Shown here in pieces: positions 40,944 through 46,857 of a DNA stretch of 64,000 nt. A program made the position numbers and the translations under genes. Under the pieces are notes generated by a model that ran no database searches, was not told where the DNA came from, and saw only the letters and a list, made by a program, of their open reading frames with translations. Numbering within the stretch: position 1 is the stretch's first letter; every line of letters starts with the position of its first letter. Source of the stretch: Longimicrobiales bacterium (GTDB lineage Bacteria; Gemmatimonadota; Gemmatimonadetes; Longimicrobiales; Gaopeijiaceae); contig CBDDCX010000007.1 in assembly GCA_965226375.1 (NCBI GenBank), forward strand, positions 512,001 through 576,000, in the 5' to 3' direction.

Positions 40944-41089
40944 GACGCAGGAACCGGACAACGTAGGACGCTCACCGGAAGAGTTGCCGTACTAGTGGGG
41001 GCGGGAGTCGGTTCGACGTCCCCTCGTGCCCATGAAATCAGGAGTAAAGGGGGTATTCCCTTAAGTCCACCGACCCCAAGATATAGTGG

Positions 41090-42070
41090 TTACCGGGGCT
41101 CTGCGGGCCGTTTCCCACGTCCGGTGCCGAGGTAAAGGGCCGAAGCTGGCGTGGGAGCACACTGAACAGCCTGCTCAAGCAAGCGGTAGAACAACAGGCC
41201 GCGAGCCCGGGATGTGCGTCGGTTGAAGCGAAAGGTGAACTCGTCCAGATAGTAGGGGAGGTGTTCGCGGGCGATCCCTCCTTGGAGGGTTCCGAGGACC
41301 CAGCGCTTGAGGAGAGACGCCACCCGATGTACGGCCGACATGAGCACGTGAGCGGGATCGCCGGAGGTCGAGAGGTTCGTGACCGTGTGGCGAAAGCCCA
41401 GTTTGGCGAGTCCCTGATAGCTTGGCCATCCGTCGGTATGCACCGTGCTTGCCGGTGCGATGCTATCCTTGACGAAGCCTCGCAGAACCGGAGCGGAGAG
41501 GTCGGGCACCCAACGCAGCCGTATTCTCCCGATCTTGCGTCCGTCGACCTCGGCGGCGATCGCGACGATGGCCTTCTTGATCGTCTCGCGGCCCCGCACT
41601 CCAGCCTCCACGCCCCCGACATAGCTCTCGTCCACTTGCACAACGCCGCTCAGCTGGTCGCGATCCGGTCGGACCATGGCCCGGCGGAGCTTGTGGAGCC
41701 AGACCCACGCTGTCTTGTAGCTTCCCAGTCCGAGCACGCGCTGGAGCCCGAGAGCATTGGCTCCGTATTTCTGGCTCGTGAGCTCCCAGGCAGCGAGAAA
41801 CCACAGACGCAGGGGCGAGCGCGTGCGGTGGAACACGGTTCCCGCCAGCACCGAGGTCTGCCTTCGACAGTGTGGGCAGACGAGACGCCCCCGCGATGCT
41901 CGCCAGACCTCTCCCAACCCGCCACAGCCCACGCACACAAACCCTTCCGGCCAGCGCAGACCCTCCACGTACTCCAGGCATGCCGCATCGTCGGGGAAGA
42001 ACTCGTCCAGCTCCAGCCGCGTACGGGGATAGTCCACGCCGCCACGGAGCTGAGAAGCCGGAACCGCCAT
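41090..42070 (-). CDS. IS1595-family DDE transposase
   Basis: Zn ribbon CVGC...CPHC, VDESYVGG, HTDGW, YLDEFTFRFNRR. Confidence 0.93.
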   Translation of the reverse strand: MAVPASQLRGGVDYPRTRLELDEFFPDDAACLEYVEGLRWPEGFVCVGCGGLGEVWRASRGRLVCPHCRRQTSVLAGTVFHRTRSPLRLWFLAAWELTSQKYGANALGLQRVLGLGSYKTAWVWLHKLRRAMVRPDRDQLSGVVQVDESYVGGVEAGVRGRETIKKAIVAIAAEVDGRKIGRIRLRWVPDLSAPVLRGFVKDSIAPASTVHTDGWPSYQGLAKLGFRHTVTNLSTSGDPAHVLMSAVHRVASLLKRWVLGTLQGGIAREHLPYYLDEFTFRFNRRTSRARGLLFYRLLEQAVQCAPTPASALYLGTGRGKRPAEPR

Positions 42071-42072
42071 GA

Positions 42073-42088
42073 CCACAACATGTAGTGG
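42073..42088. promoter_or_regulatory. NrdR-box-like palindrome just upstream of the transposase ATG
   Basis: CCACAACATGTAGTGG; a related copy CCCCAAGATATAGTGG lies at 41074-41089. Confidence 0.5.
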
Positions 42089-42128
42089 GCGGTGGACTTA
42101 AGGCAATACCCCATTCAGGAGTATTCAA

Positions 42129-42614
42129 TTGAAGCCAGCTACGCTCGTTTGCCTTATTGCCCTCCTCACGCCCACGAGCCTCTCCGGCATCCAGCAGTCT
42201 GCCGACGAACTCGAACTTCTCCGCATCCACGAGGCGGTCATGGAATCCCACCGCCAGGGAGACGTGGAGACGTGGATGGCGGTCGAGTCGGAGCGGTATA
42301 CTTCGGTCAATCGAGGCCGGATAACCTTTCCCAGCAGCGATGATCGGCGGCAGATGCGGGAGCCGTATCTGGCCTCCACGACCTTCACGATGTACCGGGA
42401 TCTGCGCACGCCCCTCGTTCGCGTGTCCGGCGACGGGTCCCTCGGTTGGCTGATGGCCGAGGTGGAGGTGCGAGGTGTGCAACGAGGGCAGGGGGGAGAA
42501 GAGACACCTATCCACACCATCTGGGCCTGGATAGAACTCTATGAGAAGGGCCCTGACGGATGGCGGGTGGTGGGGAACGCGTCCAACCCTCGAGAGGATG
42601 ACGACGGGCGATAG
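42129..42614 (+). CDS. Secreted NTF2-like (DUF4440/SnoaL-type) protein
   Basis: Signal peptide; VRVSGDGSLGWL and WIELYEKGPDGWRVV; AGGAG RBS. Confidence 0.75.
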   Translation: MKPATLVCLIALLTPTSLSGIQQSADELELLRIHEAVMESHRQGDVETWMAVESERYTSVNRGRITFPSSDDRRQMREPYLASTTFTMYRDLRTPLVRVSGDGSLGWLMAEVEVRGVQRGQGGEETPIHTIWAWIELYEKGPDGWRVVGNASNPREDDDGR

Positions 42615-45481: not shown

Positions 45482-46857
45482 GGTAGTGTCCCTAGATTTG
45501 TGTAAAAGCGGATAAGCTGGACAGGAGGGAAAGAAAAACGGAAGCTCCTCTGTTGTTGTTCACTGTCACATGAACCCGGGAGGCCGGGTCTGCAGAGCAG
45601 GCTCGGAACCGGAGAGGAGCTTCCGATGCAAGAGATTGTGGAGATCGGTCGGGCCACGCAAGACGAGCTACGCGATGATTTGCGCGAGCTGTTTCAAGGC
45701 GCGATCCGGCTGACGCTCGAGATGGTGCTGGAAGAGGAGCTGAAGGCTATGGTAGGTGCACGCCGCTTCGAGCGGGTGGGAAGCCGGAAGGACCATAGGA
45801 ACGGCACATACCTGAGGCGGCTGCTGACGAGCCTGGGACAGATCGAGGTCGCCATGCCCCGGAGCCGGGACAACGGTTCGCCGGCCGACGTGATCGGCCG
45901 CTACCAGCGCAGGAGCCCCGAGCTCGACGAGATGATGGTCGAGGCGTATGTGAGCGGCGTGTCACAGCGCAAGATGGGCGACGTCACCGAGGCGCTGATG
46001 GGCGAGCGTGTCGGGCGCTCGACGGTGAGTCGTGTGGCAAAACGGCTCGACGAGGCCGTGGAAGGGCTGCGCCGTGCGCCGATCGAGGGGCCTCACCCCT
46101 ATCTGTACCTGGACGCCACGTTCTTGGACGCCCGCTGGGCCCGCAAAGTCGAGAACGTGAGTGCGCTCGTGGCGTATGCAGTGGGCCCTGAGGGTCACCG
46201 ACGGCTCCTGGCCGTCACGCTGGGCGCTGAGGAGTCGCAGCAGAGCTGGTCGGAGCTCCTCGAGCAACTCCAGGACCGCGGCCTCGGCGGTGTCGAGCTC
46301 GTGATCGCCGATGAGCACGCAGGCCTGGCAGCTGCGGTCCGCCGCTTCCTGCCCGAGGCACGCCGTCAGAGGTGTACGGTCCATCTGCAGCGTAATGTGG
46401 GGGCGAGGGTCCCCCACCGCCTACGCAAGCGCGTGGCGCGTGAGGTCTCGGTGATCTTCCAGACATCCGGACTCGCCGAGGCGAAGAAGCTCCTGGGCGA
46501 GTTCGGCGCACGCTGGAAGAAGGAGCTGCCCGAGGCCGTGGAGGTCCTGGAGCGGGGCTTCGGGGCAGCGACGCAGTTCTACGCGTTCCCCGAGGCGCAC
46601 TGGCCCCGGCTGCGTACCACCAACAGCCTCGAGCGGCTGCACGGCGAGATCAAACGCAGGATCAAGGCCGCCGGCGCCTTCCCGGACCGGGCCAGCGCCC
46701 TCAGGCTCATCACGGTCGTCGCACTCAGGACCACACACGTCTGGGGCGACCGGCGTTACCTCGACCTCTCACTCCTCCAGAAACAGGAGGTCGCCCAAGC
46801 AGCCTAGCCGAAGGCGAGGAGCTTCCTCCGCTTTTACACACAAATCGGGACTTGACC
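45482..46857 (+). mobile_element. IS256-family insertion sequence, 1376 bp, 8-bp TSD GCTGATTC
   Basis: Ends GGTAGTGTCCCTAGATTTGTGTAAAAGCGGA and reverse complement GGTCAAGTCCCGATTTGTGTGTAAAAGCGGA; TSD at 45474-45481 and 46858-46865. Confidence 0.95.
45626..46807 (+). CDS. IS256-family (Mutator-type) transposase
   Basis: RNGTYLR, YLYLDAT, VIADEHAGL, QRCTVH, RTTNSLERLHGEIKRR. Confidence 0.95.
   Translation: MQEIVEIGRATQDELRDDLRELFQGAIRLTLEMVLEEELKAMVGARRFERVGSRKDHRNGTYLRRLLTSLGQIEVAMPRSRDNGSPADVIGRYQRRSPELDEMMVEAYVSGVSQRKMGDVTEALMGERVGRSTVSRVAKRLDEAVEGLRRAPIEGPHPYLYLDATFLDARWARKVENVSALVAYAVGPEGHRRLLAVTLGAEESQQSWSELLEQLQDRGLGGVELVIADEHAGLAAAVRRFLPEARRQRCTVHLQRNVGARVPHRLRKRVAREVSVIFQTSGLAEAKKLLGEFGARWKKELPEAVEVLERGFGAATQFYAFPEAHWPRLRTTNSLERLHGEIKRRIKAAGAFPDRASALRLITVVALRTTHVWGDRRYLDLSLLQKQEVAQAA

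Follow-up and report, generated by a model that had tools for sequence, protein, structure and literature searches.

NrdR-type boxes at both ends of an IS1595-family insertion sequence: a candidate host operator divided across a mobile element

The papers covered here present NrdR as a repressor of ribonucleotide reductase (RNR) genes and topA of Pseudomonas aeruginosa as a target outside them; in the parts of PMC4409342 available to us, a lone box at topA works in vivo and NrdR activates there. Portions of PMC13584703 report that E. coli NrdR fails to bind lone boxes in vitro and that NrdRs cross-bind foreign boxes. Good binding is documented only for spacers of about 14-17 or 24-27 bp (the same portions, with parts of PMC12051234), and box centres three or four turns apart are preferred (PMC12051234, in part). 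The structural accounts, likewise available in part, describe a flexible tetramer with two Zn-ribbon pairs, one for each box (PMC9110341, PMC12176259), which kinks the DNA by ~90 degrees at each box (PMC9110341). Long-range bridging is not reported in the passages covered of these NrdR papers. Sites for host factors at the ends of insertion sequences (IS) are an already known kind of arrangement, an IHF site beside the outside end of IS10/Tn10 being the example we use here (PMC3159471, in part). NrdR boxes at IS, transposase or IS1595 ends are not reported in the literature that we could search, which consisted mostly of open papers.

Here we analyse an insertion sequence that carries such a box at each end. 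It lies in a window of 64,000 nucleotides, by which we mean the whole stretch of DNA that was analysed, and its features are as follows.

41047..42115, minus strand: IS1595-family insertion sequence, 1,069 bp, from sequence and transposase profiles
41039..41046, plus strand: left copy of the 8-bp target-site duplication, from sequence
42116..42123, plus strand: right copy of the 8-bp target-site duplication, from sequence
41047..41072, plus strand: 26-bp terminal inverted repeat at the transposase 3' end, 24/26 match with the other end
42090..42115, minus strand: 26-bp terminal inverted repeat at the transposase 5' end, containing candidate -35 elements
41090..42070, minus strand: transposase gene, 326 aa, Zn ribbon and DDE (PF12760, PF12762, NF033547)
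41074..41089, no strand assigned: NrdR-type box at the element 3' end, positions 28-43 from the tip, 17.0 bits
42073..42088, no strand assigned: NrdR-type box at the element 5' end, positions 28-43 from the tip, over the likely -10, 20.4 bits
42101..42106, minus strand: candidate -35 (TTGCCT) of the earlier note, specific to the 5' repeat, inferred
42077..42082, minus strand: putative weak -10 lying within the box and 6 nt upstream of the ATG, judged from spacing

Judged against the same portions of those papers, the element shares with RNR-promoter operators (PMC13584703, PMC12051234, PMC9110341) the 16-bp partial palindrome, the six key bases and a host NrdR; its overlap with promoter elements is clear in the family consensus and weak in this copy. 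It differs in that its box centres lie 999 bp apart, one box per end, rather than 31-32 or about 41-43 bp apart, and in that the gene under the box encodes a transposase. Like topA (PMC4409342) it has a lone box at a non-RNR gene, the in vivo effect being known from topA; unlike topA, where NrdR activates, it has a second box at its far end. As with IHF at IS10/Tn10 (PMC3159471), the candidate site for a host DNA-bending protein flanks a transposase-bound end, but IHF plays an architectural part at a single end and does not sense nucleotides, whereas here the site is found at both ends and over a promoter. The element resembles an NrdR operator in its workings, but its spacing is not that of the known pairs, and so we do not file it as a canonical member.

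The transposase, an IS1595-type DDE enzyme with an N-terminal Zn ribbon, matches PF12762 (2e-29) and PF12760 (9e-12), and scores 189 bits on NF033547, for which the cut-off is 75. The inverted repeats, matching at 24 of 26 positions, and the short duplication of 8 bp, which is the length typical of the IS1595 family, agree with this assignment. The Zn ribbon and DDE, the length of ~1 kb, the 8-bp duplication and the related ends are shared with IS1595 elements of the ISCsp2, ISRama1 and ISAcr1 type, although ISRama1 and ISCsp2 (52% identical) lack the boxes and have a LexA-type motif instead. As to subgroup, the transposase is 52% identical to ISCsp2-family transposases. The IS1595 elements of S. 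herbicidovorans MH are placed in the ISSod11 subgroup by PMC5737581, and a plasmid record of that strain names ISCsp2; by linking that naming with that assignment, our element probably belongs to ISSod11 as well.

The host genome (G000) contains 37 full-length copies at 99% identity or more, 29 of them with an exact 8-bp duplication, and many copies with an identical transposase occur in a Longimicrobiales genome. The public sequencing runs richest in the element include sponge metagenomes, and its sequence is found in public RNA runs, which is no proof of transcription. Several other arrangements were observed in passing. Exact pieces of the IS interior, 23-53 nt long, are stitched into other genes at G000:C2:51075-51353, which we take to be a partly duplicated retron-like reverse transcriptase gene, and at G000:C6:98183-98286, presumably a type I restriction specificity gene; these are either repair scars or assembly errors. 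At G000:C8:11512-15009 several IS copies of 65-97% identity adjoin in alternating orientation with many gaps, likely a long-read fold-back artefact, and G000:C5:241212-243356 is a head-to-tail tandem dimer with a 7-bp spacer between the tips. Within the window, a second IS with a Mutator/IS256-type transposase (45626-46807) seems to split a gene that lies between 45322 and 48028.

The earlier note had claimed two 16-bp imperfect palindromes at positions 28-43 from the tips, better matched as direct copies (13/16) than as inverted ones (11/16), the right one ending 2 nt before the transposase ATG. Coordinates and both match figures are reproduced, and the ATG is at 42070; at the other end, the stop codon (41090-41092) abuts the left box. 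The left box is self-palindromic at 10/16 and the right at 14/16, and all six key bases (C4, A6, A8, T9, T11, G13) are present in both, around an AT-rich centre. We scored the boxes with a matrix of 28 boxes from 14 of 24 RNR loci examined, leaving out those of G000 when scoring the window. The 17.0 and 20.4 bits obtained are like those of genuine nrd boxes, the host's own nrdJ pair scoring 19.5 and 15.0; the nrd side of the matrix is partly circular, since its boxes were picked with the earlier note's consensus as seed, while the six key positions are given independently of it by PMC13584703 in the part available. On contig C6, with the IS copies counted, ~3.5e-5 of the positions sampled reach at least 17 bits.

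The proposal requires a host with nrdR, and G000 has the gene above cut-off, encoding both Zn ribbon and ATP cone. Its single RNR large-subunit gene, apparently class II nrdJ from our reading of the protein, is preceded by a box pair 32 bp apart. Sites of at least 16.9 bits lie inside copies of the element in 93 of 97 cases. The highest-scoring site outside the IS is the nrdJ promoter, which is also the only canonical pair among 30 non-IS sites of at least 13 bits; outside the IS there are also a few strong lone boxes that lie near no nrd gene. We also noticed a lone NrdR-like box of 13.1 bits upstream of a gene at G000:C7:223418, presumably dnaA. The left (3') box is identical to nrdJ box 1 at 15 of 16 positions. 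Host-specific covariation was not seen in box sequence, the own host's nrd boxes ranking 1, 6, 9, 11, 3, 4, 13 and 1 of 13. Since the boxes are not generally nearer to their own host's nrd boxes, the 15/16 match has little extra weight.

In the earlier note the right box was held to overlap the -10 of a promoter whose -35 was TTGCCT. The box does coincide with the family consensus -10, but for this copy the promoter assignment is weak, and a consensus scan found 0 promoter-like sites in 41000-42250. The family promoter combines a -35 on repeat positions 15-20 with a -10 on box positions 11-16 (38-43 from the tip), the two separated by a 17-bp spacer, so that in most relatives the -35 sits five bases further inward than the one proposed. 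TTGCCT as the family -35 is thus rejected: it fits only the small sub-clade of the window element. Members of this sub-clade have a flipped box and their ATG at 46, and TTGCCT with the weak -10 at 34-39 has the same geometry as the family promoter; L081 and L092 carry a similar 5'-specific -35 hexamer. In 34 of 40 elements the start codon falls between positions 50 and 52, counted from the tip, 6-8 nt after the -10, and the transposase mRNA is therefore likely to be leaderless. Elements without the box retain the -10 and have lost the rest of it. Read inward, the 3' box has no -10, which accounts for the direct-copy pattern; across 40 elements the direct match is the better in 23 and the inverted in 8.

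In order to ask how the boxes are distributed, we collected relatives of at least 45% identity with a recognisable end, giving 121 loci, or 111 after clustering at 90%. The best 80 of 507 stretches in genome contigs yielded 77 loci, from which redundant copies in two genomes were dropped, and the others came from the best 80 of 592 metagenome matches, one viral contig and three phylum samples; because it was drawn from best matches and phylum samples, the set is biased to the closest relatives. A second Spirochaetota sample of 401 genomes added no close relative. At one fixed offset (20), a box of at least 8 bits is present at 53 of 92 5' ends and 49 of 101 3' ends, and all other offsets from -12 to +74 together give 3 (5') and 7 (3') matches, of which 2 and 4 are one base off. 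The positional conservation that the earlier note asked about is therefore seen at both ends of about half of the collected relatives. Among 82 non-redundant two-ended relatives, which include kin and are not independent, 41 have both boxes, 7 only the 5' box, 2 only the 3' box and 32 neither.

The boxless state is reached by 10 changes on a quick IQ-TREE tree of 81 elements and 4 outgroups, at least 7 of them forced by starred branches. The nearest relatives of the window element include both states, and 12 of the 81 elements, labelled 'mid', have intermediate, decayed boxes. On independent pairs taken from a separate FastTree tree, the two ends change in the same direction in 4.3 of 6 pairs and in opposite directions in none (p = 0.125). 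In ISAcr1, at 43% identity, boxes of 18.4 and 16.4 bits occupy that offset at the two ends, and L308 carries both as well, so the trait is either old or was gained more than once; these two come from cultured hosts, Acidiphilium and Rhizorhabdus respectively. Many hosts with nrdR carry boxless elements, from which it follows that any such control is optional.

A second box near the first was sought at 31, 32, 42 and 43 bp, start to start, and is found at neither end. The best partner at these four spacings scores 1.9 bits in 40 box-bearing elements and 1.0 at 86 ends in G000, and the wider offset profile (-12 to +74) has no second box peak. Simple repression at one end is consequently doubtful, and of the versions considered the bridging one alone fits. 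Given that related IS keep or lose both boxes jointly, host NrdR likely bridges the ends. In the mechanism we propose, each end of the element would supply one of the two boxes that a single dATP/ATP-loaded NrdR tetramer requires. When dATP is plentiful the tetramer would loop the ~1-kb element, cover the transposase promoter at its -10 and hold the ends; as dATP falls, it would let go of them. The two-box rule and the joint loss of boxes would then fit one model, in which the pair is completed across the element. That NrdR binds the boxes we rate as somewhat better than an even chance, while the fuller reading, that they are one host NrdR operator split in two which represses the transposase at high dATP, is in our estimation evenly balanced. 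The effect would presumably be repression, and transposition would then follow dNTP status. A tip-to-tip junction was considered as a way of forming a box pair and rejected, as the box centres would be 70 bp plus the spacer apart (77 bp in the G000 dimer), which is not whole turns. No circle junction or end-to-end joint was found among contigs of 4 public runs, a search that cannot show absence.

The earlier note also looked to a correlation with host nrdR, and here the outcome is divided: intact ends are commoner where nrdR is present, but boxes persist in f4, a family of the host's class. Counting an end as intact if it has C4, A6, T11 and G13 plus AT, 30 of 32 box-derived ends (mean 18.3 bits) qualify where the host has nrdR, against 5 of 11 (mean 11.1) where it was not found; counting two further ends whose repeats are poor makes the latter 7 of 13. 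Fisher's test gives p 0.002-0.004, a significance inflated by kinship and by the general decay of those copies. No nrdR was detected in the 61 f4 genomes at least 90% complete, nor in 5 searched with the host protein as query, and none of 12 f4 RNR loci has a box pair before the gene. As a separate observation, f4 RNR promoters (for example in G294, G379, G435 and G992) share another short conserved element. Of 401 genomes, 22 have any match to the IS. In six of the seven closer relatives from f4 one end or both reach 8 bits, with two-end scores of 15.5/17.1 (L260), 11.6/17.3 (L264), 8.8/10.6 (L263) and 4.7/14.7 bits (L259) and single-end scores of 17.7 (L261) and 13.3 bits (L262); L205 alone is boxless. 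All seven are on contigs of 1.2-9.3 kb, and some of the boxes show partial decay. The contig of L262 (G979:C56) has MucR- and Fur-like genes on one side, which look alphaproteobacterial to us, and at the cut 5' IS end a pepA region syntenic with G000, so that it is possibly chimeric, and the L260 contig is not common to two genomes of its genus. The f4 copies may be newcomers, relics or mis-binned. In the Spirochaetota samples, where nrdR was likewise not found, L020, L199 and L192 are boxless and L193 and L194 lack C4.

Persistence of the boxes in genomes without nrdR is one reason to consider that the transposase itself may use the box as an optional sub-terminal site, and that the likeness to NrdR boxes arose because two zinc-ribbon proteins converged on a palindrome that bends easily. 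The transposase does have a Zn ribbon, the boxes are equally distant from both tips, and one box per end is insufficient for NrdR in vitro (PMC13584703, in the part available). We are nevertheless sceptical. The box does not diverge with the repeat: repeats resemble their partner within the element at 16.75 of 18 positions and those of other elements at 12.5, whereas boxes resemble their partner at 9.7 of 16 and others at 9.5. As the repeat is homogenised within the element and the box is not, the box follows a lineage-independent consensus. This bears out the earlier note's view that it is distinct from the repeat, and disposes of the box as an extension of the inverted repeat. Furthermore, no transposase column tracks the box in 39 box-bearing and 34 boxless proteins; at the best column (30/39 against 7/34) the window's own protein has the boxless state, and no residue of the near-invariant predicted helix-turn-helix stretch follows the box. 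Duplications matching at 7 or more of 8 positions flank 17 of 34 boxless elements and 12 of 41 box-bearing ones, and 12 boxless elements combine matching repeats, a duplication and no stop. Given these clean duplications and the lack of a distinguishing residue, the transposase does not need the box, which is absent from both ends of 32 of the 82 relatives.

The pattern of base conservation also speaks against the transposase as the binding protein. Scoring ends selected by the score of the other end, C4, A6, T11 and G13 are kept in 42, 42, 43 and 41 of 43 5' ends and in 46, 46, 47 and 47 of 48 3' ends, A8 and T9 being relaxed at the latter to 38/48 and 35/48, while the positions flanking the box are random. 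This matches the tolerances measured for NrdR in the available part of PMC13584703. We consider a transposase site unlikely, if far from negligible.

A different role for NrdR is that of a helper, its kink folding or pairing the ends as IHF does at IS10, so that transposition would take place when there are ample dNTPs for gap repair. The kink at each box (PMC9110341) and the IHF precedent (PMC3159471), both from partly available sources, are consistent with this analogy, as is activation from a lone box at topA (PMC4409342, in part); 37 full copies of the element have built up in an nrdR-bearing host, and at the 3' box there is no transposase promoter to repress. The position of the 5' box over the -10, however, points to repression, and boxless relatives have moved cleanly, which makes a helper role quite unlikely.

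We give a similarly low probability to the suggestion that NrdR is uninvolved and that the motif is maintained by some other widespread protein of the host or by the intrinsic bendability of the DNA. Retention of boxes in nrdR-less f4 and the few strong lone non-IS boxes of G000 with no nrd gene near would be explained, but the top non-IS site of G000 is the nrdJ promoter, with the sole canonical pair among the 30. Across five f4 genomes (G379, G992, G435, G897 and G1150) the sole occurrences of the pattern are those at the IS of G992 and a single one in G379, and the specific conservation of C4 and G13 exceeds what bendability needs. That the box is a relic, acquired a single time along with a promoter, duplicated onto the opposite end and now kept only as a -10 and by descent, is very unlikely and for the 3' box largely refuted, since, although half of the 5' box is a -10 element and the decayed 'mid' intermediates exist, the 3' box has no -10 role and keeps C4, A6, T11 and G13 in 46-47 of 48 ends among transposases 50-65% identical, while boxless elements retain the -10 yet lose the remainder.

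Some boxless relatives carry another motif in the region of the box. In L251, of the ISRama1 family (NZ_CP146094.1), an identical LexA-type motif is present at both ends ~39-54 nt from the tip, ~30 nt beyond the anchor. It occurs at the 5' end only in L305 and in L252/L307, and L306 has none. This one two-ended case hints that the element has a slot in which the host operator may be swapped. Separately, the flanks of boxless L255, on a Burkholderia plasmid, look like halves of a LexA-type site, as if the element had inserted at one. The searchable, mostly open literature on LexA and IS1595 contains no description of the motif.

Our conclusion is that the NrdR-type box pair across the IS ends is real, conserved and undescribed in the literature searched. 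The widest form of the split-operator reading is that an IS clade spanning phyla carries a divided NrdR operator that would gate transposition on dATP/ATP through synapsis of its ends, in a slot that LexA sites may fill instead, and that its copies could titrate NrdR from nrdJ; this we put forward tentatively, as possible but doubtful. If NrdR does bind, a mobile element would read the dNTP state of its cell directly, and bridging of lone boxes over a long range would be a new binding mode. Box-bearing, boxless and LexA-type variants of one clade would then make a natural comparison for studying how jumping is timed to replication stress. If titration is true, an IS burst such as that in G000, with 93 strong boxes against one native pair, could shift the dNTP supply of the host.
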